Shown here one piece after another: positions 1,161 to 41,979 of a DNA stretch of 42,066 nucleotides (its first letter is position 1; each line of letters starts with the position of its first letter). Source of the DNA: an uncultured Gammaproteobacteria bacterium (GTDB lineage: Bacteria; Patescibacteriota; Patescibacteriia; Veblenbacterales; UBA10138); contig CAYVOI010000001.1 of NCBI GenBank assembly GCA_964453605.1, forward strand, positions 376,029 to 418,094. Direction: 5' to 3'. The notes under the pieces are model-generated. The model had not been told where the DNA came from. It worked only from the letters and a program-made list of their open reading frames with translations, and searched no databases. The position numbers and the translations under genes are program-made.

Positions 1161-1189
1161 TTGACAACATAGCCGTTTTGCCCTACACT
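1161..1189 (+). promoter_or_regulatory. sigma70 promoter for the 1270 ORF
   Basis: TTGACA (1161-1166), 17-nt spacer, TACACT (1184-1189). Confidence 0.75.
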
Positions 1190-1269
1190 AATTTGTTACT
1201 ACCAGTACGGACATTAACAACAGTCCCTGCTAACAGGGACATAACTATAAACAAATCAAAGGAGATGCC

Positions 1270-1722
1270 ATGTCAAAGGAAAGTCCGTGGCCCCAGGGCT
1301 CAGTTCGCCCCGCTTCGTTCGAACCCAAGTGGTTCCCTGGTGGGAACTGTTCTATCTACGAGCAGGACGAGCGCTCCCTGGCGCTAGCTGAAGTTAACCT
1401 GTCCACGGTTAAGCTTGTAACCTGCCTCAAAAAAGGTGAGGCCCGTATCAAGGGCCAGGAAAGACTGAAGCGCCTGAAACAGGCGGGTCACATTCTCCTC
1501 GATGCTAGGTTCTGTCTGGCGATCTGGAATAACGAAGAGCTTATTCCTAAGAGCTGGAGGGGTAAGGACATCTGTTTCGACGGCACTGTCCTCCAGCACC
1601 CGCGCGCCGGCTGTGGTGTGATGTGCCTGAGCTGCTGGGGCGACGAGTGCGGCTGGGGCCTAAAATGGCTTAAGGACGTCTGGTACCCCAACCAGCCTTC
1701 GGCTGTTCTCGTCGCCGCCTAA
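1270..1722 (+). CDS. Hypothetical protein (150 aa)
   Basis: ORF with its own promoter, SD AAAGGAG (1258-1264) and a downstream terminator; Trp-rich C-terminus; no recognised function. Confidence 0.8.
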   Translation: MSKESPWPQGSVRPASFEPKWFPGGNCSIYEQDERSLALAEVNLSTVKLVTCLKKGEARIKGQERLKRLKQAGHILLDARFCLAIWNNEELIPKSWRGKDICFDGTVLQHPRAGCGVMCLSCWGDECGWGLKWLKDVWYPNQPSAVLVAA

Positions 1723-1777
1723 CGCGAGGCGAGTACGTTGGCCTTGTGCGTTGAGCCAAGGCTAACGTAAAACCTGT

Positions 1778-1819
1778 ACCCCTCATGTTCAAATGCTATG
1801 AACATGAGGGGTGTTTTTA
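1778..1819 (+). terminator. Intrinsic terminator
   Basis: Perfect 14-bp stem ACCCCTCATGTTCA/TGAACATGAGGGGT followed by GTTTTT. Confidence 0.85.
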
Positions 1820-1837
1820 TTGGTTAGAGGCCAAGAC

Positions 1838-1866
1838 TTGCCAAGTTCCTAGGTTTAGCCTATACT
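1838..1866 (+). promoter_or_regulatory. sigma70 promoter of the rpsB-tsf-pyrH operon
   Basis: TTGCCA (1838-1843), 17-nt spacer, TATACT (1861-1866). Confidence 0.8.
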
Positions 1867-1871
1867 ACCTG

Positions 1872-1999
1872 CACTTAATCTCCATACCATTTGCTGGCTG
1901 TACCCTTGTCCGCCCTGGGCGGATTCTCCAGCCTTTCAAAGCAGGCGGTAGCAGCTCTCCCCGTAATACTTTGGGGAGGGGTAAAGGAAGCAGTTTTTT
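1872..1999 (+). ncRNA. Structured 5' leader, probable rpsB (S2) regulatory leader
   Basis: Lies between the promoter and the original rpsB start site. Nested stems: TACCCTT/AGGGGTA, TCCGCC/GGCGGA, CTCCCC/GGGGAG. Confidence 0.5.
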
Positions 2000-2000
2000 T

Positions 2001-2319
2001 ATGCCCGGTAGTGAAACTTTGACAGGTTATGTTCCATTACGTATACGTACTTCGAAGCTCGGTCATAAGGAGTGCTTTACCACGGGCAGACTACCGATTT
2101 CAAGAAACGGCTTAGGGAACATAACCAAGGTCTAGTGATTTCGACCAAGCCATACCGTCCCTGGGAGCTCATATACTACGAAGCTTGTTTGTCTGAGAGC
2201 GACGCTAAGCGTCGAGAGCACTACTTCAAGACCAATCAAGGCAGGCGGCTCCTCAAACGTCGTATCAAAGATTACCTATTCACTATTAACTCTTAAGTCA
2301 AAGTTCTACTACCGGGTAT
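2001..2319. mobile_element. Miniature inverted-repeat element carrying a GIY-YIG nuclease gene, inserted at the rpsB start
   Basis: ATGCCCGGTAGTGAAACTTTGAC (2001-2023) pairs with GTCAAAGTTCTACTACCGGGTAT (2297-2319): 20 Watson-Crick pairs, 2 G-T pairs, 1 mismatch. TATGCCC occurs at both 2000-2006 and 2317-2323. Confidence 0.75.
2029..2296 (+). pseudogene. Small standalone GIY-YIG endonuclease (UPF0213/YhbQ-like), frameshifted
   Basis: MFHYVYVLRS from the ATG at 2029 is in a different frame from LYHGQTTDFKKRLREHNQG...TKPYRPWELIYYEAC...DAKRREHYFK (2072-2296). The frame changes within about 2056-2075. Confidence 0.8.
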
Positions 2320-3064
2320 GCCCCAACTCCCCACACTACTCGAGATGCTGAAGGCCGGCGTGCACTTTGGCCACCAGAAGTCCAAGTGGCACCCCAAGAT
2401 GCGCGACTACATTTACACCGTGCGCCATGGCATCCACATTTTAGACCTCGAGAAAACCTCGGCCGCTCTAGAGCGCGCGCTCAATTTTCTCAGGGACGTT
2501 GCTGCCGGTGGTGGCACGGTGCTGTTCGTAAGCCTCAAGGAGCAGGCTGATAAGCCAATTCGCGAGGCGGCCGAGCGTACCAACCAGCCCTACATTGTAG
2601 GCCGCTGGCTCGGCGGTGTGTTCACCAACTTTAGTGTTATTGGCAAGCTCTTGAGGCGCCTTGACTCGTTAGAAGCCGAACAGAAGGGCGGCATCTGGGA
2701 GCAGAAGTACTCTAAGAAGGAGCAGCTTGAGCTGCAGCGTGATTTTGACAAGCTCCAGGAAACGGTTGGTGGTATTCGCAACCTGACTAAGCTGCCGCAG
2801 GCCATCTTCCTCGTTGGTACACGCGAGGCTAAGAACGCCATTCGCGAGGCCAAGAAGGTCGGCGTGCCAGTGGCAGCGTTGGTTGATACCAACACGAACC
2901 CTGAGCAAGTTACCTACCCCATTCCTGCGAACGACGACGCCATGCACGCTATAGAGATGATGGTAAAGTTGGCCGCTGAGGCGGTTATGGAAGGCCAGAA
3001 AATTGCCCTCGAGGGAACAAAGGCCGAGGCCGAAGGCCCTAAGGCGCCAGTGCCAGCTGCATAA
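2318..3064 (+). CDS. rpsB: 30S ribosomal protein S2
   Basis: LLEMLKAGVHFGHQKSKWHPKM, RWLGGVFTNF, LVDTNTNP, PIPANDDA. Confidence 0.98.
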   Translation: MPQLPTLLEMLKAGVHFGHQKSKWHPKMRDYIYTVRHGIHILDLEKTSAALERALNFLRDVAAGGGTVLFVSLKEQADKPIREAAERTNQPYIVGRWLGGVFTNFSVIGKLLRRLDSLEAEQKGGIWEQKYSKKEQLELQRDFDKLQETVGGIRNLTKLPQAIFLVGTREAKNAIREAKKVGVPVAALVDTNTNPEQVTYPIPANDDAMHAIEMMVKLAAEAVMEGQKIALEGTKAEAEGPKAPVPAA

Positions 3065-4495: not shown

Positions 4496-5419
4496 TTATT
4501 TTAGTAGTGCCATTTTCCCCACCTCCACATAGGCACGAACGTCGCTGGTGGCGCTAGCCTGCAGGCGGTAGATGTACATACCGCTAGGCACGTTAGCCGC
4601 TGCCTGGAAGCTAACAGCGTAGTACCCGCCTGGCTGCGTGCCATCGACCAGGGTGGCGACCTTTTGGCCGAGCATGTTGTACACCGCCAGCCTGACGTAG
4701 CTTTCGGTTGGTAGCTCGTACTGGATGGTCGTCGAGGGGTTGAACGGGTTGGGGTAGTTCTGCAGCAGCCGGTACGTCGCTGGAACAGAGCCGGGGCCCG
4801 TTGCCACGGCCGTGGGATTGCCGTACAGCCAGCGTATCCCATCTTCATCGTCCTGTGACAGGTACCGTTTGCTGGTGGAGCCAGCGGTTTGCCCGTAGTA
4901 CATGGTGTTGCCGCTACAGTGGTCGTCGTACTCATCCATTAGTTTCAGCCAGTGACCCAGCTCATGGGTGATGGTGGACTGAATGTCCCACTGAGATACA
5001 CTGGGACTAATGCTCCACTCTATGCCATCAACCTGGTTGAAGCACGTTTGTGCTTCAACCATGCCATCGACAGGGTTCCAAAACGTAGTCGTGCGGGCCA
5101 GCACCGTCACATCGGTTAAGAGTTGCCAACCGACGATGTTGAACCCCTGTTCCGTACCGGTATAGTTCTCAGCTCGTTCACTTGCATACGAGAACCAGAA
5201 CGACGAGCCCGGAACGTACGTTAGCGTTTGTGCTGCATCCAGAGTCCCATTCACGAACTCTGCGTGGCTGGCGGAATTGGTGCCCATGTTATCGTTTATG
5301 TAAAACGTCACATGGGCACTGTGCCAGAAGCACCCCTGTGGACTGCTGTAGCAGGGCTGAGCTTTGGTGGTTGAAATAAACCACGAACTCAGTGCGATAA
5401 GGAGAAGTAACCGTTTCAT
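4496..5419 (-). CDS. Secreted matrixin/metzincin-like zinc metalloprotease with a C-terminal T9SS type A sorting domain
   Basis: Signal peptide MKRLLLLIAL...; zinc motif HELGHWLKLMD with Met-turn NTMY; C-terminal LLQNYPNPFNPSTTIQYELP...VYNMLGQKVATLV...SGMYIYRLQA...KMALLK; SD AAGGAGGT. Confidence 0.85.
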   Translation of the reverse strand: MKRLLLLIALSSWFISTTKAQPCYSSPQGCFWHSAHVTFYINDNMGTNSASHAEFVNGTLDAAQTLTYVPGSSFWFSYASERAENYTGTEQGFNIVGWQLLTDVTVLARTTTFWNPVDGMVEAQTCFNQVDGIEWSISPSVSQWDIQSTITHELGHWLKLMDEYDDHCSGNTMYYGQTAGSTSKRYLSQDDEDGIRWLYGNPTAVATGPGSVPATYRLLQNYPNPFNPSTTIQYELPTESYVRLAVYNMLGQKVATLVDGTQPGGYYAVSFQAAANVPSGMYIYRLQASATSDVRAYVEVGKMALLK

Positions 5420-5430
5420 GGCTCACCTCC

Positions 5431-6144
5431 TTACTTCCCCAAAACCTTAACGGTTTTGGTAACAGAGCTCTCCCATGCTTCAACGGTGACGCTGCGGCCA
5501 GTCACGGTCGCTAGCCTGCCGTTACTCGGGCGGTACACGCCTCCGAGCAAGCCCTGGATTTGGTAGTACAAGGTGCTTGAGCTCTGCAATTGCTGCAGCG
5601 CCCGTGGATAGTTTCTCTGCATATCCATGTACAAACTAGCTGCAGATAAGAATACCCAGACCTCATTTCCTTCCTGAAGGTCGTCCACGTTATCGGTGGT
5701 GGCTTGGTTGCTCTCGCTTGGTCCATTGAACAGCAGGACTTGCACCACGTTGGAGGTATCTCCGTAGTCGTTCCTATAAAATTGACTGACCTTCAGCGTG
5801 GCGACGCCGTGGAACGGTCCGATTACTATAGGTTCGACTTTTTCTACGGTCGCGTGCACAATGTAGTCCGCGAGTAGAGCCTTAGTAGACTCTGTACGGT
5901 TGGCCCGATTGGCGATGTCAGCCGCCACCCGTGTCCCGTCGGCCGCCTCAAACTGCCGCAGGGTTTCTGGAGTGTAGCCCATTTCAGTAAAGAAACGAGC
6001 GTACTCACCCTTGATGCCGAACTGCCTAAGGGCGGCTCGGTTGGCGGCTGTAAGCCCGTACCGGTTGAAGCGGTACGGCTCGCTACCGTAGGCAAGCGTG
6101 GCTGCAACTGCAACCATGGCGAAGTATATAGTGAGAGTCTTCAT
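5431..6144 (-). CDS. Secreted hypothetical protein co-transcribed with the protease
   Basis: Signal peptide MKTLTIYFAMVAVAATLAYG; SD GAAAGGGGG; ends 11 nt before the protease start. Confidence 0.8.
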   Translation of the reverse strand: MKTLTIYFAMVAVAATLAYGSEPYRFNRYGLTAANRAALRQFGIKGEYARFFTEMGYTPETLRQFEAADGTRVAADIANRANRTESTKALLADYIVHATVEKVEPIVIGPFHGVATLKVSQFYRNDYGDTSNVVQVLLFNGPSESNQATTDNVDDLQEGNEVWVFLSAASLYMDMQRNYPRALQQLQSSSTLYYQIQGLLGGVYRPSNGRLATVTGRSVTVEAWESSVTKTVKVLGK

Positions 6145-6276
6145 AAGACCCCCTTTCTTCCTCCGGTTTTTGTTATTAGCAATGGGCTACTGGTGTATGC
6201 CCCACAACTGTGGGACAGGCTTGATAACGCCACTCATTGTTTTTTGTTAAAAGGCGTTTTTCGTTACCTTGGCCCG

Positions 6277-6306
6277 ACCTTAGCAAAAGTTCAAGCTGGC
6301 TGTCAA
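6277..6306 (-). promoter_or_regulatory. sigma70 promoter for the secreted-protein operon
   Basis: TTGACA (6306-6301), 18-nt spacer, TG-extended TAAGGT; boxA-like CGCCTTTTAACA at 6256-6245. Confidence 0.6.
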
Positions 6307-6352
6307 GCACGGCTCGCCGCCTTACGTTTAGGGGTTTAGTTATCCACAGAGC

Positions 6353-6382
6353 TTGACAACCGTACGGATAGAAGTTTAAGAT
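6353..6382 (+). promoter_or_regulatory. sigma70 promoter for the structured transcript
   Basis: TTGACA (6353-6358), 18-nt spacer, TAAGAT (6377-6382). Confidence 0.65.
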
Positions 6383-6509
6383 GCCGCTAAGCTGAGGTAC
6401 GGGATAGCGTATTGCCGCGTCAGGCAGGTCAACAAGACCACTTCGTATCCCCAAACCCTTGGCCCAACACACAATTCACTATTTCAAAAACAAACCCCAT
6501 GGAGGTTCC

Positions 6510-6617
6510 ATGCTGAAAGTAAGAAACCTCCCACCCATGACGGTGGCACCCCGGAACATCATGCCGACCGGCCGGAGCGGTACCAAAGAATACAGCAATG
6601 CAATTCACGGTCCTTAA
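6510..6617 (+). CDS. Putative 35-aa small protein
   Basis: GGAGGT at 6501-6506, then ATG: MLKVRNLPPMTVAPRNIMPTGRSGTKEYSNAIHGP*. Confidence 0.4.
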   Translation: MLKVRNLPPMTVAPRNIMPTGRSGTKEYSNAIHGP

Positions 6618-6718
6618 GTGGATCGCCTGATTCTCAAGTGTGATCACACTCATCATCAGGGCCCGCCCGAGCAGGGCAGGGGGACCAGATCCTCGCCCTC
6701 TTGATCATTGCTGATCAC

Positions 6719-6801
6719 AAGCCCAACCCGCAGCTAGAGTTACTAGAAGCCCAAGGCTTCCTAAACAAAGAGCTGCTCCATTGCGGGTTGGCTTTTTTTT
6801 T
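6719..6801 (+). terminator. Terminator-like stem with T tract
   Basis: AAGCCCAACCCGCAG...TTGCGGGTTGGCTT, running into a T9 tract. Confidence 0.7.
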
Positions 6802-6851
6802 ACTCCAAATGCGCCTATACTAGAGGTGTACCCATTTACCTTTACTCACTT

Positions 6852-8259: not shown

Positions 8260-8553
8260 TCAGGCTGGTTGAGCGGTTCTTTTTGGTTGTGTTAATTTTT
8301 TGTGGAAGAACCACTCAGTCACTGGCCCCTTGTTGCCCGGGCGCTTAAAAACGCGGAACCGGTAATCCTCAGTGGCCTTGCTCCTCTGGAAGTAGGTCAC
8401 CAGCCAGTAGGGGCACTGCCAGCAGGCCCTTAGTCGTTCGCTCTCAGTGGTGACCAAACTGCGGGTCAAGCTTTGACTTTCATCGAGTTCTCGAGCCAGG
8501 GCGTCGTTCGTCAGCTTGTTGAGCGGTAGCATAAACCACTGGTAGGTATTCAT
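8260..8553 (-). CDS. Hypothetical protein (97 aa)
   Basis: Strong SD AAGGAGGT (8569-8562) directly after the helicase stop. Confidence 0.75.
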   Translation of the reverse strand: MNTYQWFMLPLNKLTNDALARELDESQSLTRSLVTTESERLRACWQCPYWLVTYFQRSKATEDYRFRVFKRPGNKGPVTEWFFHKKLTQPKRTAQPA

Positions 8554-8570
8554 TTTATGTAACCTCCTTT

Positions 8571-10316
8571 CTAGAAACAGTGATCGGGTCCATGAAAGCC
8601 GTTACCAGTCGTGGCGAACTTCAGCCTGGCAGGGTGGTCTGAAAAGAAGGCCAACTGTTTTTCGTCGTTACCACGTTTACACCCCCGCCGGTGTTTTGGC
8701 TTTGACGCAGCGGTCCCCGCTGTCGAGGTAACAGTTACCACAGGCAGAACCTCGGGCACTTGGCGCAGGCTAGAAAACGAGAGTGCGAGCTGAGTAGTAT
8801 CGATTGATTCGTACCAGCCAACTCTGCCAGCTGTCCAAGCTTCTTCAGCACTTGCTCGTCGAGAAAGCCCCAGGTACCGTTGCTGCTCGTACTCATGATT
8901 TAGGACTGGGAAAGCCGCACAGCCGGAACGTTTACGACCTGTACGCGCACAGCGTTGCACCCAATCATCCATGGTGAGTGGTAGATCACCATGGATTACC
9001 TCATCTACCTCCTCAATCGATATGCCTTCTTGGGCAACTGAGGTAGCTATACTGAGATCAAAGTTGCCCTGACGAAGACTTTCCTGTAGTGCGGCAAGCT
9101 GTTTCACCCTAGCTCGCTCTGCAAACAAGTTAGTAATTCGTAAGTTAGGGATAACTTCTTGCGCTGCTTCAGCGTAGTGTCGGCCAACCTTGATATCATT
9201 CACAAAACAAAGTAAGTGCATGTTCTTGGCGCGTTGGCAAGCAAACCGCTCGAGAACAGCTCCCACTTTGGGGTGGCGGCGCTGGTTTGCTAGGCCGATG
9301 GCATCTGCAAAAGAAGGGTGGCGGGCTATCCAGTGGCTGGATTTGGTATGATTGGGATCGCAGCGCAGCTCGTCAGCATACTCTAGGAAGGGAATGTAGC
9401 CGCTAAACGCTAGCCTGAGCGCATAGTCGAGCTTACGACAACGAGCGCTGGCTTCAACCGCTCGGTAGTGATCTTTGGTGAGCACGTAGTACCCTTGCTT
9501 GCTGAGCAGCTCTCTTTTTTTCAGCTCCAGTTCTATCTGCTCGAGCTGTTCATGGCTAGGACGCTGATTGACGTTAATAGTATAGCCGTAGCCTTCTAGC
9601 TCGCGGGCGGTCTCTAGGATGAGTGGCACCAGTAGCTCGTCGAGCTTAGCTAGATTGATGGTGAGCGGAATATCAATCTTTACTTTTTCTATTTCGGCTA
9701 CTGGTATGTCATAGGCAAAGTAGAAGTTTTGTATGCCTAAGGTTTCCTTGAGCTTAGCAATACTCTTGTCTGACCGGCCGGTTGAAGCCGACAGGGCCAG
9801 GAAGGGGATGCCCTGTTCATTTAAGTACCGCATGAACACAGCTTCAACATTACTACCAAGCGCGTGTTGGAATTCGTCCATTATTGGCAAACCAAGGGCG
9901 GTGGGCTGAAGCTGATGAGCTCGTACGTCTTTCCAACTTGAGTCCGCGGTGGTAAAGGTAAACTGGTACCTGTGGTCCAGGGTTCTCTTGGCAGCTGGCG
10001 TTTCACCAGTTTGCCACGTCCAGGGATAGGCGCCCCCTGTTATCATATCGAGGAATTGGGGATGGTTTATGGGGTGAGCTATGATCTTCTGTGGTTCCAT
10101 GAACGTACTGCGCATGCGCAGGATGATAGCCACCAGTATAGCTATGGCAGTTTTGCCAGCTGATGGTGGGGCAATGAGGGCAGCAGGGCCACTCCGCAGG
10201 CGTTCAGCAATTATTGGTGCGTGCTTTAGCCAATACGGTAGCTTCGGGTTATCCTTCAAGCCATTGAACGGTAGGCTAGCGAGCAGGCGCTCGCCATCGT
10301 CCTTCATGGTTACCAT
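8571..10316 (-). CDS. SF2 helicase, Hef/FANCM(Mph1)-like, divergent
   Basis: Motif I PPSAGKT, II DEFQH, III LSAS, helical insertion then HPKV, V ATSVAQEGISI, VI QRCARTGR; SD AGAGGAG. Confidence 0.78.
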   Translation of the reverse strand: MVTMKDDGERLLASLPFNGLKDNPKLPYWLKHAPIIAERLRSGPAALIAPPSAGKTAIAILVAIILRMRSTFMEPQKIIAHPINHPQFLDMITGGAYPWTWQTGETPAAKRTLDHRYQFTFTTADSSWKDVRAHQLQPTALGLPIMDEFQHALGSNVEAVFMRYLNEQGIPFLALSASTGRSDKSIAKLKETLGIQNFYFAYDIPVAEIEKVKIDIPLTINLAKLDELLVPLILETARELEGYGYTINVNQRPSHEQLEQIELELKKRELLSKQGYYVLTKDHYRAVEASARCRKLDYALRLAFSGYIPFLEYADELRCDPNHTKSSHWIARHPSFADAIGLANQRRHPKVGAVLERFACQRAKNMHLLCFVNDIKVGRHYAEAAQEVIPNLRITNLFAERARVKQLAALQESLRQGNFDLSIATSVAQEGISIEEVDEVIHGDLPLTMDDWVQRCARTGRKRSGCAAFPVLNHEYEQQRYLGLSRRASAEEAWTAGRVGWYESIDTTQLALSFSSLRQVPEVLPVVTVTSTAGTAASKPKHRRGCKRGNDEKQLAFFSDHPARLKFATTGNGFHGPDHCF

Positions 10317-10452
10317 TGTTAGTTCTCCTCTATTGTTATGTTAAAAAGCTCATGTTCATTTATAGTTGTATTTAGTAAAAGTATAAACCCAAGAATAGGT
10401 ACTGACAACTGCGCCTTGGGGTTTTTTGTACTCTCAACTATACTTAAGCCAT

Positions 10453-11619
10453 ATGTCGTTCAGGGTTATCTCTGAGGCCAGAAAGCTTGCTGGTAAAATT
10501 GCCGTGGTGCGGCTCGATACCAATGTGCCGTTGAAAGGGAAGAAGGTGGAAGACGATGCCAGGCTCCGAGCGGCGCTGCCGACCTTACGGTACCTGGAGC
10601 GCCACGGCGCGCGACTGGTACTCATGGGGCACCTGGGGCGGCCGCAGGGCAAGAAGGTGGCTGCGCTTTCGCTTAAGCCCATTGGCTACACCCTTGGCAA
10701 GCTGCTGCGACAGAAGGTACTCGTGCTGCCACTGTCGAAAGGCCCGGAGGCTATAAAGCGCGCGGCCGAGCGCAGTGTAGTACTGGTAGAGAACATTCGC
10801 TTTGAACGCGGCGAGGACACGAACGACCCTGCCTTGGCTAAAACTTTAGGTAAGCTCGGTAACCTATTTGTGAATGAAGCTTTTTCGGTTTCGCACCGTA
10901 CGGCGGCCTCAGTGGTTGGCATAGCACGTCACCTGCCCTCGTATGCTGGCTTGGCGCTGGCAGCTGAGGTAACCGCGCTTGAGCACGTGCGCAAGGCAGG
11001 CAAGAAGCCGGTGGTAGTAGTGATTGGCGGTGCCAAAGTAGCAGACAAGCTTCCGGTTATTGCAAAGCTGTTGCCGCGCGCCTCAGCGGTTTTGGTCGGT
11101 GGGGCAGTGGCCAACACCTTCCTCCGAGCCAAGAAGTACCGCCTTGGTGCATCACTCGTTGATGAGGACGAGGTAGCGGCCGCGCGTGCCTTGCTCAAGC
11201 GCGGTGGCAAGAAGTTGGTGTTGCCGATTGATGTGGTGGTTGATAACGTTCGCACGCGGCGCGGTGAAGCGCAGTGGAAGTTACCCGACGAAGTTGGCGC
11301 GCGCGAACGCGTGGTAGACGTAGGTACGCGGACCACGCTGCTCTATGCCTCGTTCCTAAAAAAAGCGAATACGGTGTTCTGGGCTGGTCCGTTGGGCCTG
11401 GTGGAGGAGCACCAGTGGAGCCACGGTACGCTGTCTCTGGCGCGGTTGGTCTCGGCCCGCGCGCGTGGCCCAGCTTTTGTGCTGGTGGGGGGTGGCGATA
11501 CCGTGAACCTGTTCCACCAGCACAAGCTGTGGGTGGACCACGCCTCACTGGCGGGCAGTGCCCTGCTTGACTTTTTGGCTGGTGTGAAGTTGCCTGGCCT
11601 TACGGCGCTTGAACATTAG
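10453..11619 (+). CDS. pgk: Phosphoglycerate kinase
   Basis: VRLDTNVP, HLGRP, LVENIRF, VNEAFSVSHR, GGAKVADK, GGGDT; TATACT at 10439-10444 just upstream. Confidence 0.96.
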   Translation: MSFRVISEARKLAGKIAVVRLDTNVPLKGKKVEDDARLRAALPTLRYLERHGARLVLMGHLGRPQGKKVAALSLKPIGYTLGKLLRQKVLVLPLSKGPEAIKRAAERSVVLVENIRFERGEDTNDPALAKTLGKLGNLFVNEAFSVSHRTAASVVGIARHLPSYAGLALAAEVTALEHVRKAGKKPVVVVIGGAKVADKLPVIAKLLPRASAVLVGGAVANTFLRAKKYRLGASLVDEDEVAAARALLKRGGKKLVLPIDVVVDNVRTRRGEAQWKLPDEVGARERVVDVGTRTTLLYASFLKKANTVFWAGPLGLVEEHQWSHGTLSLARLVSARARGPAFVLVGGGDTVNLFHQHKLWVDHASLAGSALLDFLAGVKLPGLTALEH

Positions 11620-12957: not shown

Positions 12958-14541
12958 ATGGTGCGAAAAGTATCCAAGAGCCGTACGCCGTTTGTGCTCG
13001 CCATTCTCGACGGTTGGGGTAAGCGCCCGGGGGCGGTCAGTCCCGACGACCCAACACGGCGCGCTCGCACGCCCTTCCTCCGGGAGCTCGAGGCACATTT
13101 CCCCAGCGCCACCCTGGGCGCGAGTGGGGTTGATGTAGGACTACCCAAGGGGCAAGACGGCAACTCGGAAGCGGGGCACCTGAACCTCGGGGCTGGCCGC
13201 ATTGTGGAGCAGGACGCCGTCTACATTTCTCAGAGCATCAAAGATGGCAGCTTTTTTAAGAACCACGCGCTGCTCGCAGCCCTCAAGCACGTTAAGCAGC
13301 GCAAAGGCGCACTCCACCTCATGGGCCTGCTCTCGAACTACAACAGCGGCCACGCCTCACCTGACCACTTCTTTGCCCTGCTGAAGCTCGCGCGAGAGCA
13401 CAAGGTGGGGCCTATCTTTATCCACTTCTTTACCGATGGCCGCGACTCGCCCAAGTACGATGCGGTAAAGTTCTTAGGCGAGGTGCAGCGCCGCTTGAAG
13501 CACGGCGAAAAAGTGGCGACCCTGACCGGCCGGTTCTACGCTATGGACCGGAAAAAGTTTTGGCCCCGTACCGAGCAAACCTATAACCTGTTAACGCGGG
13601 GCACAGGGATAGCCCAGGAGTCTGGCGAAACCGCGCTCCGGCATGCCTACAACCGCGGCGAGAGCGACGAGTACCTAAGCCCCACCGTTATCACCGATAG
13701 CCACCACAAGCCCTTAGGCACCATTCGCGACGGCGATGCTGTTATCTTTTTTAACCTCCGTAGTGACCGCGCGCGGCAGCTCGCCAAGCCGTTTGTGCAA
13801 ACTTCTTTCGAAAAAGAGAATCCAGGCAGCTTTAAGCGTTGGAAGGTCCTCAAAAATTTGTGTTTTGTGGCACTCACTGACTTTGGCCCGGACCTTGGCA
13901 ACATTCTGACCGCCTACCCCTCGCGCGATGTGCAGCACAGCCTACCCATGGCCCTTGCTGGCATGAAGCAGCTGTACCTGGCGGAAAGTGAGAAGTTTGC
14001 CCACATTACCTACTTCTTCAACGGCGGCTACGACCACCCGGTGGCGGGTGAGCGCCGGCTGATGGTGCCCTCGCCCAACGTTACCTCTTACGACCGGGCG
14101 CCGGCCATGGCCGCCGTAAAACTTACCCAAGCTGCGCTGGCTGCGTTGAAGCAGCACAAAGCTGACTTTATTGGCATGAACTTTGCTAACCTCGACATGG
14201 TGGGGCACACCGGCAACTTCACGGCCTGTGTGAAGGCGCTCGAGGTGGTGGACGCCTGCCTCAAGCGGCTGGGGCGTGGTGTGATCGCTCGGGGGGGAAC
14301 TCTGCTCGTTACGGCTGACCACGGCAACATCGAGGAAACCATAAACCAGAAAACCGGTGAAATTGATACTGAGCACTCCATCAATCCCGTGCCGTGCCTC
14401 TTGTACCGTCCGGAGTTCCGCGGTAAGGCGTTCGTGCGCCGCCGCGGCATCTTAGGTGATGTGGCTCCCACGGTGCTCGACCTCTTGGGGCTGCCCAAGC
14501 CAGCTGAGATGACGCGGGCTAGCCTATTTCACAAGCTATGA
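12958..14541 (+). CDS. gpmI: 2,3-bisphosphoglycerate-independent phosphoglycerate mutase, copy 1
   Basis: LAILDGWG, GNSEAGH, DGRD, AESEKFAH, NLDMVGHTG, TADHGN. Confidence 0.95.
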   Translation: MVRKVSKSRTPFVLAILDGWGKRPGAVSPDDPTRRARTPFLRELEAHFPSATLGASGVDVGLPKGQDGNSEAGHLNLGAGRIVEQDAVYISQSIKDGSFFKNHALLAALKHVKQRKGALHLMGLLSNYNSGHASPDHFFALLKLAREHKVGPIFIHFFTDGRDSPKYDAVKFLGEVQRRLKHGEKVATLTGRFYAMDRKKFWPRTEQTYNLLTRGTGIAQESGETALRHAYNRGESDEYLSPTVITDSHHKPLGTIRDGDAVIFFNLRSDRARQLAKPFVQTSFEKENPGSFKRWKVLKNLCFVALTDFGPDLGNILTAYPSRDVQHSLPMALAGMKQLYLAESEKFAHITYFFNGGYDHPVAGERRLMVPSPNVTSYDRAPAMAAVKLTQAALAALKQHKADFIGMNFANLDMVGHTGNFTACVKALEVVDACLKRLGRGVIARGGTLLVTADHGNIEETINQKTGEIDTEHSINPVPCLLYRPEFRGKAFVRRRGILGDVAPTVLDLLGLPKPAEMTRASLFHKL

Positions 14542-16118
14542 CGGAGGGACTCAGGCCGCGTCCGGTGGTACTCGTTATTCTCGATGGCTGGGGCGTGGCC
14601 CCACCCTCGCGTGGTAACGCTATTACCCAGGCGGTCACCCCGATTTTCCACAAGCTCATCGTAAGCTACCCCACCTTCACGCTCCAGGCGGCCGGGGAGG
14701 CCGTCGGGCTACCGTGGGGCGAAATGGGGAACAGCGAAGTTGGCCACCTCACCATGGGCGCCGGTAAAATACTCTACCAAGACCTGCCGCGCATCACCCG
14801 GGCTATTGTTGACCAATCGTTCTTCAGTAACCCGGCCTTCCTGAAGGCTTGTGCCCTGGTGAAAGAGCGCGGCAGCCAGCTACACCTCCTGGGCATGGTT
14901 TCCCCGGGCGGGGTGCACAGTTCATCTGAGCACCTCTACGCACTCTTAGAGCTGGCAGCCAAGCAGAACTTGACGCGCGTTTTTGTGCACGCGATGTTAG
15001 ACGGGCGTGATACGCCCTACAACTCTGGCCAGGGCTACCTCAGGGAGCTCGGCAGCACCATAAAAAAACTAGGTGTAGGTAAGGTGGCCACGCTCATGGG
15101 CCGGTTCTATAGTATGGACCGGGACAACCACTGGGAACGTACGCAGGCCGCGTACGATTGCATAGTGCACGGTAAGGGGAAGCCAGCTGCCTCCGTGGCC
15201 GAAGCTATTAAGGCCTCCTACGAAGCGAAGATCTACGACGAGGAGGTGGTGCCAACCGTTATCACCGAAGGGGACCAACCGGTGGCCACCGTGGCTCAGG
15301 GCGACGTCGTTATCTTTTTCAACTTCCGCAGCGACCGCGCCCGTCAACTGACCGAGGCACTTGCACGCACGGAGTTTGATAAGTTCCCCCGCGGCAGCCC
15401 CGGCACGTGTGAGGTGGTGACCATGACCGAGTACGAAAAGGGTTTACCGGTGCAGGTGGCGTTTCCGCCTGAGGTGGCTGAGTACCCACTGGCCCGCGTA
15501 CTGTCCGATGCCGGCCTCAAGCAGCTGCACCTGGCGGAAACCGAAAAGTACGCCCATGTGACCTACTTTTTTAACGGCGGCCGAGAAGCTGCCTACCCAG
15601 GTGAGGACCACGTGCTTATACCCTCACCCGTGGTGCCGTCCTACGACCAAAAGCCGCAGATGTCAGCGCGTGGTATTACCGATCGGCTTGCGCAAGAGGT
15701 TCGAGCCGGCAACTACGACATCTACGTGGTGAACTACGCCAATGCTGACATGGTAGCCCACACCGGCAACCTCCCGGCCACGGTTAAAGCCATCGAGCTC
15801 CTTGACCAAATGCTCGGTGAGGTGGTGGCGTCAGTGCTCGAGGCGGGCGGCATGGTTTTCATCACCGCTGACCACGGTAACGCTGAAGGACTTATCAATT
15901 TACAAACCGGCGCCATAGATAAGGAACACTCCGCTTCCCCCGTACCACTCATCATTGTAGGCCAAGGGTACGAACACAAGGTGGCCGCCGGTAGCACGGT
16001 GACTGAGGACCTGTCGCAACTTACCTCAGCTGGGTTACTCTCCGACGTGGCGCCTACCATTCTGAAAGTTTTGGGCATTCGGAAACCTGCTGACATGACC
16101 GGGCAGAGCTTACTCTAG
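14538..16118 (+). CDS. gpmI: 2,3-bisphosphoglycerate-independent phosphoglycerate mutase, copy 2
   Basis: LVILDGWG, MGNSEVGH, GGVHS, AETEKYAHVT, NADMVAHTG, TADHGN; ATGA overlap with copy 1. Confidence 0.95.
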   Translation: MTEGLRPRPVVLVILDGWGVAPPSRGNAITQAVTPIFHKLIVSYPTFTLQAAGEAVGLPWGEMGNSEVGHLTMGAGKILYQDLPRITRAIVDQSFFSNPAFLKACALVKERGSQLHLLGMVSPGGVHSSSEHLYALLELAAKQNLTRVFVHAMLDGRDTPYNSGQGYLRELGSTIKKLGVGKVATLMGRFYSMDRDNHWERTQAAYDCIVHGKGKPAASVAEAIKASYEAKIYDEEVVPTVITEGDQPVATVAQGDVVIFFNFRSDRARQLTEALARTEFDKFPRGSPGTCEVVTMTEYEKGLPVQVAFPPEVAEYPLARVLSDAGLKQLHLAETEKYAHVTYFFNGGREAAYPGEDHVLIPSPVVPSYDQKPQMSARGITDRLAQEVRAGNYDIYVVNYANADMVAHTGNLPATVKAIELLDQMLGEVVASVLEAGGMVFITADHGNAEGLINLQTGAIDKEHSASPVPLIIVGQGYEHKVAAGSTVTEDLSQLTSAGLLSDVAPTILKVLGIRKPADMTGQSLL

Positions 16119-17108: not shown

Positions 17109-18050
17109 CTAAGGCTGTGACAGTAGATGCCAGGCATCTTTGAACTGCCACCAATCTATTTTCGGCTTCAGTTTCGGATAGGTTAACTTTCGCAATGGCA
17201 GGTAAATTATTTTGGCGCCCTTACGACAGTATTTGGCCGGAATCACGTAGTAGAGTTTTGTTCGGCTAGTTTCAATGAGGAAAATCTTAAAAGCCGTTTT
17301 TGGATCATAAGATACGTCTGCTGATGCTCCAACCCAACGTGCTTTAGAGTTCGTTCCTCTGTGTCGTATAGAGATTAAACAGACCTTTCCGTTAAGCAAG
17401 ATGCATCCCCGGACACACCTTGGAGGATAGGCATTTTGGCGCGGAATAAGCTCTACCTCAAGTTTGTGATCCCGTGCTTTTTTGACGATACTACGGAGGT
17501 ATTTATTGTGTGGGTTGGCCATCTCTTGCCTTAAGCGATACTTGGCTTGTTCTTTGGCGTGCACGCTCCATCGTTGGCGCCCATTCGCATACGGTAGTCC
17601 TAATCTAAAATGATCCTGATAGATTTGCCGTACTCGTTCAAGAGTCAAGCCAACTTTTTCGGCAATTTCACTAAAGCGCACTGACGGGTCAGCAAATAAG
17701 CGTCGCCAGTCGTCAAGCGTACCAATACTAGGGTGGCTCTCAAGGCGCCACCGTCGATATAGGTCACGCCGCGCTCGTTTTATAAGCCTATGTTCGACCA
17801 TCACAATGTTTAAGCTCTGTAGTACGCGAGATAACCAGCTGGAAGTTTCCTGTAATTTTTGCCGATCCGTTCTTATTTTGAGCGGTAGCATCTCGACTAT
17901 TTCTTGGGGTGAAATTATTCCAGTAGCTAACGCTCGTCGTAGAACAGGTTTAGCAATAGAAACATTAAGCTTTAAATCAAGCTTCCTGCCTGCACGGTGG
18001 AGCCACTGGATTTTAGCAACCGCAAGTTCCGTACTCCGTTGTGTATACAT
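17109..18050 (-). CDS. Hypothetical DNA-binding protein (sigma70 region 1.1-like segment, sigma4-like HTH, possible nuclease-fold C-terminus)
   Basis: LRRALATGIISPQEIVEMLP...LQSLNIVMVE; FSEIAEKVGLTLERVRQIY; ends WWQFKDAWHLL; AT-richer than its neighbours; SD GGAAAGGT. Confidence 0.7.
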   Translation of the reverse strand: MYTQRSTELAVAKIQWLHRAGRKLDLKLNVSIAKPVLRRALATGIISPQEIVEMLPLKIRTDRQKLQETSSWLSRVLQSLNIVMVEHRLIKRARRDLYRRWRLESHPSIGTLDDWRRLFADPSVRFSEIAEKVGLTLERVRQIYQDHFRLGLPYANGRQRWSVHAKEQAKYRLRQEMANPHNKYLRSIVKKARDHKLEVELIPRQNAYPPRCVRGCILLNGKVCLISIRHRGTNSKARWVGASADVSYDPKTAFKIFLIETSRTKLYYVIPAKYCRKGAKIIYLPLRKLTYPKLKPKIDWWQFKDAWHLLSQP

Positions 18051-35612: not shown

Positions 35613-35641
35613 TTGACAGTTCGCCTGAGACTGGTTATGGT
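35613..35641 (+). promoter_or_regulatory. sigma70 promoter for the lytic transglycosylase
   Basis: TTGACA (35613-35618), 17-nt spacer, TATGGT. Confidence 0.55.
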
Positions 35642-35688
35642 AGAGTAAAACAATACACGTAACACCAAAATTATGAAAGGGCACTACC

Positions 35689-36729
35689 TTGAAAACTTTG
35701 TTCAGTTTTGTTGCCGGCGCGGTAACATTTCTAGTGATTGCGCTCGCGAAGTACGCCTGCGCTCCTAAACCCGAGCCACCGTTGTCTCAAGTTCGCGATT
35801 CAGTTACTAACCTACAGCAGCAGTTGGTAGTAGCTACTGATTCAATCGTTGCCCTGCAGCGCGCCTTCTCGCTCCACCTAGCGCACGATTCAGCTACCGT
35901 GGCTGAACTTAAGCACAGCCAGTACCCTTTTACCGGATTTATCTTGCGCCACGACGATCGGCCGACGTTCGCCAGCATGCCCATTCCCACCGATCAGCTG
36001 CTGGTGCACGATAATTTGCAAGACGCTTTGCTGCGGTTGCAGGGTGTACCACAGCTCATGATTGCGTGGCACCTACGAGCCGGGCGTTATCGGCCGCTGA
36101 TTGAGCGAGAGCTGGCACGCCACCATGTGCATCAAAACTTCTTCTACGCGGTTCTGATTGAAAGCGGCTTGCAGCCAGATGCACTATCGCCTAAGCGCGC
36201 CTTCGGCATGTTTCAATTTATCAAAGCCGCGGCGCAGGACCATGGCTTAGTAGTCACCCTGGGTAAATACGACGAGCGTGCCGATTTCGTAAAATCGCTG
36301 GCGGCCTTTTGTCAGTACCTGGAAGAGGCCTATGCCGAATTTCACAACCCACTGCTCGTGCTCGCTTCGTACAACTGTGGTATGGGTAAAACACGCGCCT
36401 TGGTAAAACGGTACGGGAACGATCCGTTTGCTATTCGCTGGTCTAAGGAAACACGACGCTACCTATTTAGCGCTTGCGCGGTTACCATGGCTTTTTCAGA
36501 CCAGGATCGTTTCATACCCTCCTTACGTCGTATCGCTGCCTATCCGACGTACGCTGTCTCTACGGTGCTGCTACGAGTAAAAAAGCGGCTTCCACTGAGT
36601 GAAGTAACAAAACTACTTAAACTGGACGCTCGCTTGGCCGATGTATTCACCCTCTACAACGGGCAGCTGTTGGCAGATCCGTTACCACCACGTTCTTACG
36701 TGGTCAATATACCTCGGCCGATGAACTAG
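35689..36729 (+). CDS. Exported lytic transglycosylase (SLT domain, MltD-like)
   Basis: N-terminal hydrophobic segment and coiled coil; LIESG, AFGMFQF, YDERADFVKS...YL, LASYNCG, ETRRY; SD GAAAGGG before TTG. Confidence 0.88.
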   Translation: MKTLFSFVAGAVTFLVIALAKYACAPKPEPPLSQVRDSVTNLQQQLVVATDSIVALQRAFSLHLAHDSATVAELKHSQYPFTGFILRHDDRPTFASMPIPTDQLLVHDNLQDALLRLQGVPQLMIAWHLRAGRYRPLIERELARHHVHQNFFYAVLIESGLQPDALSPKRAFGMFQFIKAAAQDHGLVVTLGKYDERADFVKSLAAFCQYLEEAYAEFHNPLLVLASYNCGMGKTRALVKRYGNDPFAIRWSKETRRYLFSACAVTMAFSDQDRFIPSLRRIAAYPTYAVSTVLLRVKKRLPLSEVTKLLKLDARLADVFTLYNGQLLADPLPPRSYVVNIPRPMN

Positions 36730-40133: not shown

Positions 40134-40244
40134 AGCGCTTTACCGCCGTATACGCTTTCAGTATACTATAGGTGTTCAGTTCTGCACTAGGTGTGCGCGA
40201 GTTGTTGGCTACTACCAGCCGTGCCGCTAGTGACACTTTAGCCC

Positions 40245-40811
40245 ATGCTCGAACGACTCTTTGGTTCACGGACACGTGTTAAGTTGCTCAGGCTCTTTCT
40301 CACCAATCAGAGCACGGCCTTCTACGTACGTGAAATCAGCCGCAAGGTAGGGGAGCAGCTGAACTCGGTGCGGCGTGAGCTCGCTAACTTGATGGTGTTG
40401 GGGGTAGTCGCCAGTGCTGCCCACGACGACAAAAAGTTCTACCAGCTGAACACCAAGTTTGTTCTGGCCGACGAGCTCAAGGCGGTCCTCCTTAAGTCTC
40501 AGCTCTTGCTGGAGGAAGACCTGGTTCGCAGGATCCGTGAGTCCGGGAAAATTCGCTACCTCGCGTTAACCGGTTCGTTCACTGGCGCCAAGCAGGCCGC
40601 CACGGACATTATTTTGGTTGGCAGAGTTGACCGCTCACTGCTCCTGCGCACCATTGAACGGTTTCAGCGTGAGGTGGGGCGCGAGCTTAACTACACCCTG
40701 CTCTCCACCCGTGAGTTCAACGAGCGCCGCTCGTTAGGCGATAAGTTTTTGCTCACCATTCTCAACAACCCCAAGATTGTGGTGGTAGATGAGCTCGATA
40801 GCGCTGAGTAG
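40245..40811 (+). CDS. Winged-HTH (ArsR-like) protein with a nucleotidyltransferase-like C-terminal domain
   Basis: LFGSRTRVKLL...YVREISR...NSVRRELANL; LTGSF...TDIILVG...ELNY. Confidence 0.8.
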   Translation: MLERLFGSRTRVKLLRLFLTNQSTAFYVREISRKVGEQLNSVRRELANLMVLGVVASAAHDDKKFYQLNTKFVLADELKAVLLKSQLLLEEDLVRRIRESGKIRYLALTGSFTGAKQAATDIILVGRVDRSLLLRTIERFQREVGRELNYTLLSTREFNERRSLGDKFLLTILNNPKIVVVDELDSAE

Positions 40812-40849
40812 CTCTATGCCCTGCGGCAGTCGCCTGTCCCTCGTGTGGT

Positions 40850-41236
40850 ATGCTCCGACCTGGCTCACACCTAGCCACCTACCTCTACCTTAACGGTGTT
40901 ACGAGTCGCCACCTTGAACTTGCGCTCTTGTCGCGGCGGGGAGTGGTAAGAGAAAGGGTGGTGCGCGATGGTACGCGCACAGAAAAGCTGTTGCCAGCCG
41001 TGGCAACCTTCCTTAAAAATAGGGGAGTGGCTGGCATTATGGTGGCGCAGGGCGGCGGAAGTTTTTCACAAACGCGGATCATCTGTACGGTCGCGAACGC
41101 GCTAGCTTATGGTTGGGGTGTAAAGGTGGTTGGCGTTTCGTCTAAGCTTTCTCCCGAGCAGCTGATAGGGAAGCTATCTAAGCTCCGCTGGCAAAGACTG
41201 ATACTGCCACAGTACAGCGGGCCAGGGGTAAGGTAG
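40850..41236 (+). CDS. tsaB: Short TsaB-like tRNA t6A biosynthesis protein
   Basis: TEKLLPAV...GIMVAQGGGSFSQTRI...ANALAY (compare GPGSFTGLR); start uncertain. Confidence 0.65.
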   Translation: MLRPGSHLATYLYLNGVTSRHLELALLSRRGVVRERVVRDGTRTEKLLPAVATFLKNRGVAGIMVAQGGGSFSQTRIICTVANALAYGWGVKVVGVSSKLSPEQLIGKLSKLRWQRLILPQYSGPGVR

Positions 41237-41270
41237 TTACACTAATTGCTTTCATATTTAGTTTTGTATA

Positions 41271-41302
41271 TAAAAAGCGCCGTTCGTATAGAACGACGCT
41301 TC
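41271..41302. terminator. Terminator between convergent genes
   Basis: AAAAAGCGCCGTTC-GTATA-GAACGACGCTT. Confidence 0.65.
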
Positions 41303-41900
41303 ATTTCATTTTATTCTTGTATAAGCGTACTCCACGGAACGCATAGTACAGTACTGCGCCATGCATCACGACTGCAACTATAGGGTAGACGAAGTCTGTA
41401 AAACGGCCTGACCAGGTAAGGTATACAAGAAGGAGGTTAATCACGAACGAGGCGGTGAAGAGTACCCACACCCAAGGATTCTCGATAGTTTTACCGATTC
41501 GTATGTCACTGAGGATCGGAATGAATGAGAGTACCATAGGTATCTGAGCCAATATATTTCCCCCTTCGGCAGAACTCGTTACCCAAAGCGCTATTGCGGC
41601 GGTGCTTAGCATAACGATAATCCAGCTACTTCTGTTCAGGCGCCCGAATTTTCCGGTTACGAGCAGGAACAGGAACGTTATCGTGCAGAGCGAGGTATCA
41701 GATACCATGACCACAAGCGTGGCCCAGTCCACACCCATTCCGTGGTAGCTTGCTGCGTTAACGATGGTGACTAGTGCCCAGAGAAACCAAGTGGCAGCGT
41801 TGGGGCGCGTGCTGCCCGTGAATGCATCCTTGTTGTAAAGGATGAACGCTAAGATATTTAGGCCCCCTGCTGTGAGGGCCAGTGCATGGGTTGCGTCCAT
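41301..41900 (-). CDS. Polytopic membrane protein (PQ-loop-like two-repeat organisation)
   Basis: About 7 hydrophobic helices; TRPNAATWFLW and ENPWVW repeats; SD AGAAAGGG. Confidence 0.78.
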   Translation of the reverse strand: MDATHALALTAGGLNILAFILYNKDAFTGSTRPNAATWFLWALVTIVNAASYHGMGVDWATLVVMVSDTSLCTITFLFLLVTGKFGRLNRSSWIIVMLSTAAIALWVTSSAEGGNILAQIPMVLSFIPILSDIRIGKTIENPWVWVLFTASFVINLLLVYLTWSGRFTDFVYPIVAVVMHGAVLYYAFRGVRLYKNKMK

Positions 41901-41950
41901 GTATAGCCCTTTCTTCTAGTTTCTGTTAAAGGATTTTGTTTGTTCGAAAT

Positions 41951-41979
41951 ATCTTACTACTAGTTACTATGATTGTCAA
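41951..41979 (-). promoter_or_regulatory. sigma70 promoter for the 41900 gene
   Basis: TTGACA (41979-41974), 17-nt spacer, TAAGAT; boxA-like TCCTTTAACA at 41933-41924. Confidence 0.75.

Follow-up and report, generated by a model that had tools for sequence, protein, structure and literature searches.

Two kinds of translation start in one genome

Why should some genes of a bacterial chromosome carry a strong Shine-Dalgarno (SD) sequence when their neighbours carry none? The question is raised by a 42,066-nt stretch of DNA, referred to here as the window (C1:376029-418094 of the genome G000), in which an earlier note had seen SDs before accessory genes and none before core genes, and had proposed a shared expression cassette, possibly under the control of Nus factors. 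We find that the core observation on SDs is right and reaches beyond G000, since the SD-led and the SD-less initiation grammar were found both in G000 and in a second genome of its class. The Nus idea survives in a different and better defined form, outside the window. Overall, this is probably a system with an SD-less default and a minority of self-contained SD-led units, mostly on lineage-specific genes, with mechanisms that we infer below.

The G000 genome comprises 933,652 bp on three contigs (54% GC, 99.84% complete), and the nearest sequences to the window enolase come from Patescibacteria metagenome-assembled genomes. Genes were predicted with a caller written for this study, which uses hexamer coding potential and a greedy choice of non-overlapping open reading frames (ORFs). 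Start codons were chosen by coding score and start-codon type only. This gave 893 genes covering 89% of the genome. Two relatives were used for comparison, G013 from the same family (353 kb sampled) and G032 from the same class (400 kb sampled).

The earlier note had asked for a check of the 16S anti-SD. The 3' end of the 16S rRNA of G000 reads GGATCACCTCCTTTCT, which is the canonical anti-SD (tail used for pairing, GGAUCACCUCCUUUCU). As a separate observation, the tail of G023, a genome of the same class, reads GGATTATCTCCTTTT instead of GGATCACCTCCTTTCT and marks a lineage with an altered anti-SD. A motif scan of G000 for 23S rRNA gave nothing. SD strength was expressed as the duplex energy (dG) of CACCUCCUUUCU against positions -20 to -4, with dG <= -8 defining the SD class; the 71 genes with dG between -8 and -6 were put in neither class. 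In-frame ATG, GTG or TTG codons more than 60 codons inside genes served as mock starts.

Genome-wide use of SD sequences

By the final calls, 108 of the 893 genes have an SD, including 15 at longest-ORF starts. At dG <= -8, SDs precede 10.4% of gene starts in G000 and 7.1% of mock starts; at dG <= -10 the figures are 4.7 and 2.0%, and at dG <= -12 they are 2.4% (21 genes) and 0.6%. Weak SD-like strings are underrepresented, dG <= -4 being reached at 28.2% of gene starts and 37.0% of mock starts. In G032 the SD class is found at 12.3% of starts and 2.4% of mock starts, and 14 of the 383 sampled genes reach dG <= -12. Shifting starts to any nearby SD candidate was tried and dropped, as the 68 moves occurred at about the chance rate and both eno and mutM were wrongly moved.

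The SD-less starts carry a mark of their own. Among the non-SD ATG genes of G000, 462 of 595 have T at -1, compared with 22% of internal in-frame mock starts, and C at -2 is a weaker signal (43%). Since T(-1) is also found in 79% of 258 operon-internal genes, it is a translational signal and not one of transcription start. Orphan controls (24/32) and annotated controls (75/98) both show it, and the preference is absent in SD genes (33/87). The non-SD genes of the relatives have it as well (78% in G013 and 68% in G032, against 5% of the SD genes of G032). The initiator tRNA of G000 carries a CUCAUAA anticodon loop, i.e., A37 is present. Folding near the start codon is weak in SD and non-SD genes alike (-7.3 and -7.6 kcal/mol, compared with -11.4 and -11.5 kcal/mol). 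Leaderless mRNA is not the default for the SD-less genes, as only 6 of 83 predicted non-SD promoters lie less than 10 nt from the ATG. An observation in its own right concerns prfB (C1:254155-254260, outside the window), which has an SD-less start with T at -1 and contains a classical CTT TGA C (CUU UGA C) +1 frameshift site without an SD-like stimulator 3 nt upstream.

Accessory and core genes

The earlier note had tied the SD grammar to accessory genes. The tie is present as an enrichment, seen in G000, in G032 and in a conservation test; it is statistical and not absolute. Taking as orphans all proteins without a Pfam match at E <= 1e-5, we found 61 orphans among 110 SD-led proteins (the 108 calls and two extra ORFs) and 39 among 150 non-SD proteins (odds ratio (OR) 3.5, p = 2e-6). 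For genes with their own upstream region the contrast is larger (52/85 vs 18/78, OR 5.3), and it is also seen within proteins of 80-350 amino acids (aa) (48/82 vs 33/96). Operon-internal genes show no difference (7/23 vs 21/72), and the SD calls made there behave like chance matches. The enrichment was replicated in G032 (35/44 vs 12/50, OR 12).

Conservation points the same way, with homologs in the sampled part of G013 for 9 of 108 SD genes and 220 of 714 non-SD genes, and in that of G032 for 12 of 108 and 148 of 714, respectively. Some conserved genes do have an SD, namely rpsU, rpsO, rplA, those for HU and Hsp20, a pilin gene, pyrD, pyrF, thyA, tmk and plsY. SD-less genes in the control set include those for S18, S6, S17, L5, S14, L33, L27, S16, L32, L10, EF-Tu, IF2, IF3, SecY and GroES. 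The SD-led proteins are not enriched for N-terminal hydrophobicity (30/108 vs 239/714).

SD-led and SD-less genes of the window

Nine SDs had been listed in the window. Eight of them are correctly spaced, lying 4-12 nt before the start codon, and pair with CACCUCCUUUCU of the genome's own 16S tail; the ninth, at 6510, was rejected as a gene start because its GGAGGT lies 14 nt from the ATG of a 10-codon ORF. Five of the eight SD-led genes have no Pfam match and the other three contain Por_Secre_tail, Helicase_C and SLT domains. Predicted TTGACA-16/18-TAnnnT promoters precede five of them. The sites are as follows.

1161-1189, plus strand: predicted sigma70-type promoter of orphan gene 1270 (TTGACA 1161-1166, 17-nt spacer, TACACT 1184-1189; promoter scan score 11)
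1258-1264, plus strand: SD AAAGGAG of orphan gene 1270-1722 (dG -9.2; no Pfam match)
5425-5432, minus strand: SD AAGGAGGT of gene 4496-5419 (dG -16.1; Por_Secre_tail domain by Pfam)
6149-6157, minus strand: SD GAAAGGGGG of orphan gene 5431-6144 (dG -16.3; no Pfam match)
6245-6306, minus strand: predicted promoter and 5' leader of gene 6144 (TTGACA 6301-6306, TAAGGT 6277-6282; read from the sequence)
6509-6532, minus strand: the site 6510, not a start, with GGAGGT and the 10-codon ORF (read from the sequence)
8562-8569, minus strand: SD AAGGAGGT of orphan gene 8260-8553 (dG -17.4; no Pfam match)
10325-10331, minus strand: SD AGAGGAG of gene 8571-10316 (dG -9.2; Helicase_C domain by Pfam)
18056-18127, minus strand: predicted promoter (TTGACA 18122-18127, TAAGGT 18100-18105), A-rich leader and SD GGAAAGGT (18056-18063) of orphan gene 17109-18050 (dG -8.1; no Pfam match)
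35613-35681, plus strand: predicted promoter (TTGACA 35613-35618, TATGGT 35636-35641), leader and SD GAAAGGG (35675-35681; dG -8.4) of the SLT transglycosylase gene 35689-36729, TTG start
41907-41979, minus strand: predicted promoter (TTGACA 41974-41979, TAAGAT 41951-41956), A/C-rich leader and SD AGAAAGGG (41907-41914; dG -9.1) of orphan gene 41301-41900

The ORF 17109-18050 was missed by our caller owing to its low coding score. Gene 1270 has three SD-led paralogs in G000 (g197, g388 and g182), and a search for the function of this orphan family returned only 'hypothetical protein' clusters as Atlas neighbours. The 707 nt between the divergent genes at 6145-6851 hold only ORFs of 75-98 aa with a negative coding score and the 10-codon ORF, and have no Rfam match. 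The window as a whole gave no Rfam match at the gathering score.

All ten core genes named by the earlier note lack an SD (dG -3.0 to +3.6) and their identities were confirmed by Pfam, with rplJ and rplL corrected from 40245 and 40850 to 36949 and 37549. The Pfam-confirmed genes of the window are those for a release factor (RF) and L31 (minus strand), rpsB (2318), tsf (3075), pyrH (3680), gap (6852), a T4SS-pilin-like gene (7884), pgk (10453), eno (11629), two gpmI genes, mutM (16127), PAP2 (18210), manC (18799), yceG (19902), rplJ and rplL. The 'often CTT-ATG' context ascribed to such genes does not hold as such and is better stated as a T(-1) rule, as 14 ATG genes of the window without a convincing SD have T at -1. 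The start of rpsB is of this majority type, and tsf (3075), gap (6852), eno (11629), gpmI (12958 and 14538), mutM (16127) and rplL (37549) likewise combine a missing SD with T at -1. The -10 box of pgk lies so close to the ATG that a leaderless or near-leaderless start is predicted, and the pgk mRNA is probably of this kind.

2314-2320, plus strand: rpsB start, GGGT-ATG, no SD, T at -1 (dG -0.9; Ribosomal_S2)
10439-10455, plus strand: TATACT -10 box of pgk, only 8 nt before the ATG at 10453 (read from the sequence; PGK domain from residue 11)

Two further features of the core region were observed. A gene for a 74-aa GIY-YIG nuclease (2072-2296) directly precedes rpsB, and 12958-16118 holds two full-length tandem gpmI (iPGM) paralogs whose stop and start overlap by 4 nt.

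Promoters, leaders and shared cassettes

A promoter had been counted among the marks of accessory genes. It does not separate the classes because SD and non-SD regions carry the same type: a promoter score >= 9.5 is reached by 26 of 85 regions upstream of SD genes and by 83 of 353 upstream of non-SD genes (shuffled sequences gave 2 and 5), and core operons have the same TTGACA/TAnnnT promoters. The classes do differ in what follows. Between the predicted -10 box and the ATG, SD genes have a median of 62.5 nt, with no case in the range 10-39 nt, and non-SD genes one of 41 nt. The leaders of SD genes are also rich in A (35.5% vs 24.6%) and poor in G.

The claim that unrelated orphans share one cassette holds literally for a handful of genes only. 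One case is g197 and g873. Their coding regions are unrelated, while the 127-nt stretch that runs from the -35 box through to the SD is 78% identical, and the second hairpin shows a compensatory change.

Upstream sequences are shared elsewhere in the genome too. The unrelated non-SD genes g258, g261, g274, g390 and g630 have 78-100% identical upstream sequence of ~92-124 nt, reaching up to the ATG. Three paralogous leaders of ~175-350 nt (C1:279816-280139, C1:850252-850449 and C2:14613-14985) start with AGTTCTTTAA(T/C)AA at a consensus promoter. They have in common GC-rich hairpins and a conserved first ~100 nt, they precede small membrane-protein genes, and they have no Rfam match; they are a candidate structured cis-regulatory RNA.

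boxA-like strings and a boxA-hairpin leader

In mRNA 5' untranslated regions, those of suhB and others, boxA is a target of Nus factors with the consensus GYTCTTTAANA (Baniulyte et al., 2017; PMC5725501). Five boxA-like strings had been pointed out upstream of window SDs. All five are present in the sequence at the coordinates given, and their identity as boxA is not borne out, since they occur at chance frequency and have no fixed position (they are spread from -28 to -107). With up to two mismatches to GYTCTTTAANA the window holds 46 matches, against 45.6 +- 7.2 in 100 shuffles, and none is exact. Four of the five strings have one or two mismatches to this consensus and the fifth has more; none matches the rrn boxA of G000, TGTTCTTTAATAA.

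The loose pattern WTTAAMA, which covers all five, occurs 14 times in 85 SD leaders (9.8 +- 3.0 expected; reached in 25 of 200 shuffles). TTAACAA is enriched (9 vs 2.6; reached in 0 of 200 shuffles), yet 4-5 of its copies come from homologous leaders. Two of the strings were rejected individually: that at 1210-1219 is the 3' arm of the 5' stem in the 1270 leader, and the TTTAACA at 6245-6256 is part of a hairpin loop closed by an ACGCC/GGCGT stem and has two mismatches to GYTCTTTAANA. The boxA-like strings of the window result from the A/T-rich make-up of the leaders or belong to stems.

Genuine boxA matches were found elsewhere. The rrn leader of G000 reads TGTTCTTTAATAA, then GTGATAGGAA, and the rrn boxA is kept as TG[CT]TCTTT[AG]A[TC]AA in five of six rrn leaders of the family. 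Exact GYTCTTTAANA occurs 17 times in G000 against twice for the reversed control. Outside rrn there are 12 near-matches in intergenic DNA, and 9-10 of them follow a TAnnnT box, paired with a CCCTTGACA -35 box, at a distance of exactly 4 nt. Anchored to the promoter in this way, the boxA pattern has 31 matches in 14 of the 21 family genomes, and the reversed control has none. The boxA stands at +1 of strong predicted promoters, with a predicted transcript start GUUCUUUAA and the leader RNA motif GUUCUUUAACAA. One exact match lies in another context, GCTCTTTAAAA at C1:763162-763172, ~16 nt before the tRNA-Asp gene at 763188.

When 12 leaders were folded, 11 had a long hairpin after the boxA (z-scores -3.1 to -9.8). 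An A/C-rich segment comes next and is usually followed by an SD (8 of 20 loci in the relatives at dG <= -8, 12 of 20 at dG <= -6.8). The first ORF after the leader has no Pfam match in 12 of 15 cases in the relatives and 4 of 5 in G000; those with a match encode Band_7 (twice), TPM_phosphatase and Asparaginase domains. An alignment of eight sequences from six genomes supports 21 pairs, 15 of them with compensatory changes, and leaves boxA unpaired in the consensus fold. The covariance model built on this class, without the split leaders described below (which MAFFT misaligned), finds 13 of the 21 family genomes at E <= 0.01 and none of 79 genomes from the other families of the class at E <= 1e-4.

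The Rfam search gave no family for the boxA leaders; its only hits were tRNAs, one LOOT RNA and sub-threshold miRNA-like hairpins. The LOOT RNA match (RF03000, 85.9 bits) lies at L127:18080-18195 (G000 C1, ~860.7 kb). Terminators or attenuators were rejected as a role for the hairpins, which are not followed by a U-tract. The leader element is most likely a site that recruits NusB and NusE. A check for nusB, called for in the earlier note, showed that NusB is encoded in G000, as are NusA and NusG; an S10 gene was seen in the relative G032, and no search for S10 was made in G000. Nus control, as proposed for the five window strings, is not supported for them and gains support from boxA leaders outside the window, mostly before orphans.

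The leader of gene 1270 may be related to this class. It contains the following structure.

1193-1220, plus strand: 5'-terminal stem TTGTTAC ... TTAACAA with an inner hairpin in the 1270 leader (folds; alignment of four paralogous leaders, outer stem invariant)

The TTGTTAC...TTAACAA stem pattern is found four times in G000. In the leaders of g196, g197, g397 (window 1270) and g873, TTAACAA pairs with a TTGTTA that starts 3 nt after the -10 box. From its sequence, the 1270 leader looks like a boxA-hairpin element split by a small inserted hairpin, TTGTT-AC...C-TTAACAAACG. The exact pattern had 18 matches in the family, compared with 15 for the control, and the split pattern anchored to the -10 box showed no obvious excess over the reversed control in 200 genomes of the class, as judged by eye. 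For this reason the split form is in essence a feature of G000; G014 and G004 have one real case each.

A proposed default without SD and a portable SD-led unit

In the reading that we favour, most genes would be translated without SD pairing, their starts being chosen on weakly structured mRNA with U at -1. This U(-1) could pair with A37 of the initiator tRNA, and weak SD-like strings would be avoided despite the canonical anti-SD. Each minority gene would have a sigma70-type promoter of its own and a leader of 40-110 nt that forms at least one hairpin close to its 5' end; an unstructured A/C-rich linker and a strong SD would complete the unit. Most genes with such units would be lineage-specific and evolve fast, many of them having paralogs, and a few would encode conserved small proteins of high abundance (bS21, bS15, uL1, HU, pilin, Hsp20). 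Promoter-to-SD cassettes are common to unrelated coding regions, and the SD module may be a portable, context-independent start signal that moves with promoter and leader as genes arise, duplicate and get re-wired. A family-wide subclass of leaders, with rrn-type boxA and covarying hairpin, would bring NusB/NusE to the leader as it is transcribed, the role that boxA has in rrn, in lambda nut and in suhB of E. coli.

Several points weigh against this reading. The gene models and starts rest on a simple home-made caller; in 15 of the 108 SD calls the longest-ORF start was taken because an SD was there; and the background at internal starts implies that as many as ~60 of these 108 may be chance matches. 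All promoters, 5' ends and leaders are predicted from sequence. The correlation of SD and orphan status is not absolute even in the window, since the orphans 38040 and 40245 and the giant gene (4792 aa) have no SD. Genome-wide, ~26% of the ~714 non-SD genes are orphans too, so that by extrapolation only about a quarter of all orphans are SD-led and about three quarters are not. The relative G013 shows no SD excess (3.5% vs 3.7%), and the size of the SD class therefore varies between close relatives. SD status is also poorly kept between orthologs (1 of 9 in G013, 3 of 12 in G032). As for the leaders, Rho was not found in G000 with PF07497, so a classical anti-Rho role of boxA would not apply, and the long, perfectly paired hairpins could be leftovers of palindromic mobile elements, which are common in these genomes, and not functional RNA.

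Among the alternatives, the one that survives best, while still doubtful, is gating of the anti-SD by bS21. In Bacteroidia, bS21, bS18 and bS6 hide the 16S anti-SD (Jha et al., 2020; PMC7797042), and in Flavobacteriales rpsU alone has a strong extended SD, with weak SD-like strings rarer at real than at mock starts (McNutt et al., 2023; PMC9976891). By analogy, ribosomes with bS21 would be SD-blind and those without it would expose the tail, rpsU would be autoregulated, and the other SD genes would form a regulon answering to bS21 occupancy. The rpsU gene of G000 indeed has an extended SD, GAAAGGAAGGTG (dG -16.0), before a GTG start. An SD of the AAAGGAGGTGA type, at fixed spacing and with a core of GAGGTG or longer, is found in ~26 of 30 relatives from family and class, mostly with a weak GTG start, and G013 keeps it even though its other SDs are at background. 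This conserved extended SD suggests, by comparison, that the bS21/anti-SD circuit of Bacteroidia also exists in a distant phylum. The depletion of weak SDs at starts despite a canonical anti-SD is the signature described for Flavobacteriales (PMC9976891), and prfB keeps CUU UGA C without an adjacent SD-like stimulator. Against gating, the strong SD reported for Flavobacteriales is on rpsU only (PMC9976891), and rpsU is not the sole strong-SD gene here: 21 genes of G000 and 14 of the 383 sampled in G032 reach dG <= -12, and dozens of SDs look genuine. The residues reported to sequester the tail in F. johnsoniae are Tyr54 of bS21 and contacts of bS18 and bS6 (PMC7797042). A sequence search of the PDB matched bS21 chains, none of the five with residue alignments being identified as that of F. 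johnsoniae. The bS21 of G000 has 91 aa and an acidic EEED patch in its C-terminal part, which by our own count is still net basic. The bS6 protein has 159 aa, with a low-complexity C-terminal extension of ~67 aa; the bS6 and bS21 loci are C1:219573-220770 and C1:836630-836905.

It is unlikely that the SD-led genes were acquired horizontally in recent times, with bacteria that use SDs, hosts or phages as donors, and still keep foreign expression signals. Such an origin would fit a set that is rich in orphans and poorly conserved in relatives, that has a lower hexamer coding score per codon (0.357 vs 0.468, p = 2e-10), and that clusters weakly on the chromosome (19 adjacent pairs vs 13.0 +- 3.2; reached in 99 of 2000 shuffles). 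Yet GC (54.5% in SD genes vs 55.6%) and GC content at third codon positions (GC3; 61.0% vs 63.3%) are essentially the genome's own, and for the same reason we see no support for the earlier suggestion of messages tuned to a host ribosome. The promoters are moreover of the same TTGACA/TAnnnT type as those of rrn and core genes, many of the genes belong to in-genome paralog families with duplicated native leaders, and the boxA in the boxA-hairpin leader is the one found in the rrn leaders of the family. A random non-SD sample includes four genes for integrases or resolvases, which lack an SD.

We give a slim chance to a two-tier system in which bS21-gated, SD-blind ribosomes would read core genes through U(-1)AUG on open mRNA, and the lineage-specific accessory set would be switched as a block through SD-led, Nus-loaded leaders (nut-like, with boxA and hairpin) that are translated efficiently only by ribosomes with an exposed anti-SD. 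If true, organisms almost without classical regulators would have a global switch, acting after transcription, for their symbiosis or surface genes.

Mis-called starts and chance purine runs, with one grammar only, are a very improbable explanation and already largely refuted: the caller is home-made, the background at dG <= -8 is high (7.1% vs 10.4%), start-shifting gave the false eno and mutM calls (discarded) and operon-internal SD calls are chance-like, but strong SDs are in excess in G000 (2.4% vs 0.6% at dG <= -12) and in G032 (12.3% vs 2.4% at dG <= -8), the SD class differs in leader composition, leader length and -1 base, the differences in Pfam matches, conservation and T(-1) played no part in start choice, and the rpsU SD is kept in ~26 of 30 relatives.

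The SD-less default with portable SD-led units would matter beyond this genome. Patescibacteria make up a large share of bacterial diversity, and their translation start and regulation are almost unstudied; full-text literature searches on SDs and translation initiation in Patescibacteria and the candidate phyla radiation returned no description of such a split of start signals. For annotation, the U(-1) rule and the few SDs are a practical help in calling the start codons of these genomes. The accessory bias of SDs ties gene age to the kind of start signal used. With the boxA-hairpin leader the family has a widespread, covarying RNA element without an Rfam match, a candidate for Nus control of protein-coding genes outside Proteobacteria.

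Comparison with known systems

Stabiliser hairpins at the 5' terminus of bacterial mRNAs are known from the ompA leader and similar cases. The leaders described here resemble them in having stable stem-loops close to the 5' end predicted for mRNAs that are monocistronic and presumably expressed at a high level. They are unlike them in the boxA class, where 14-18 unpaired nt precede the hairpin, so that the hairpin alone would not protect against 5'-end-dependent decay. In lambda nut, boxA is followed by the boxB hairpin. The order of boxA and hairpin is the same here; the stem has ~20 bp and a variable sequence, compared with the 15-nt boxB.

The published boxA elements of mRNA leaders (PMC5725501) share with ours the GYTCTTTAANA consensus in a leader upstream of an SD and a similar copy number (1-6 per genome here, 0-7 there). 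Unlike the suhB-type boxA described there (PMC5725501), the element stands at the extreme 5' end, 4 nt after the -10 box. Its targets differ as well, being mostly orphans and not Nus or translation genes, and no Rho was found in this genome.

Pairing of U(-1) with A37 of the initiator tRNA has been documented in E. coli (Hollerer and Jeschek, 2023; PMC10018350). The elements are alike, a U just before the AUG and the A37 of the initiator tRNA. In E. coli this quadruplet pairing is a modest modulation on SD-led mRNAs (PMC10018350), whereas here U(-1) marks ~78% of the SD-less ATG genes and is the sole strong sequence signal at their starts.

In overall SD use there is a likeness to the Bacteroidia (PMC7797042, PMC9976891): a canonical anti-SD, few SDs, avoidance of weak SDs and a long conserved SD on rpsU. 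The differences are that G000 belongs to another phylum and that its starts have a U(-1) context in place of upstream adenines. Unlike the Flavobacteriales, in which typically rpsU alone has a strong SD (PMC9976891), the genome described here has dozens more strong-SD genes, most of them accessory.

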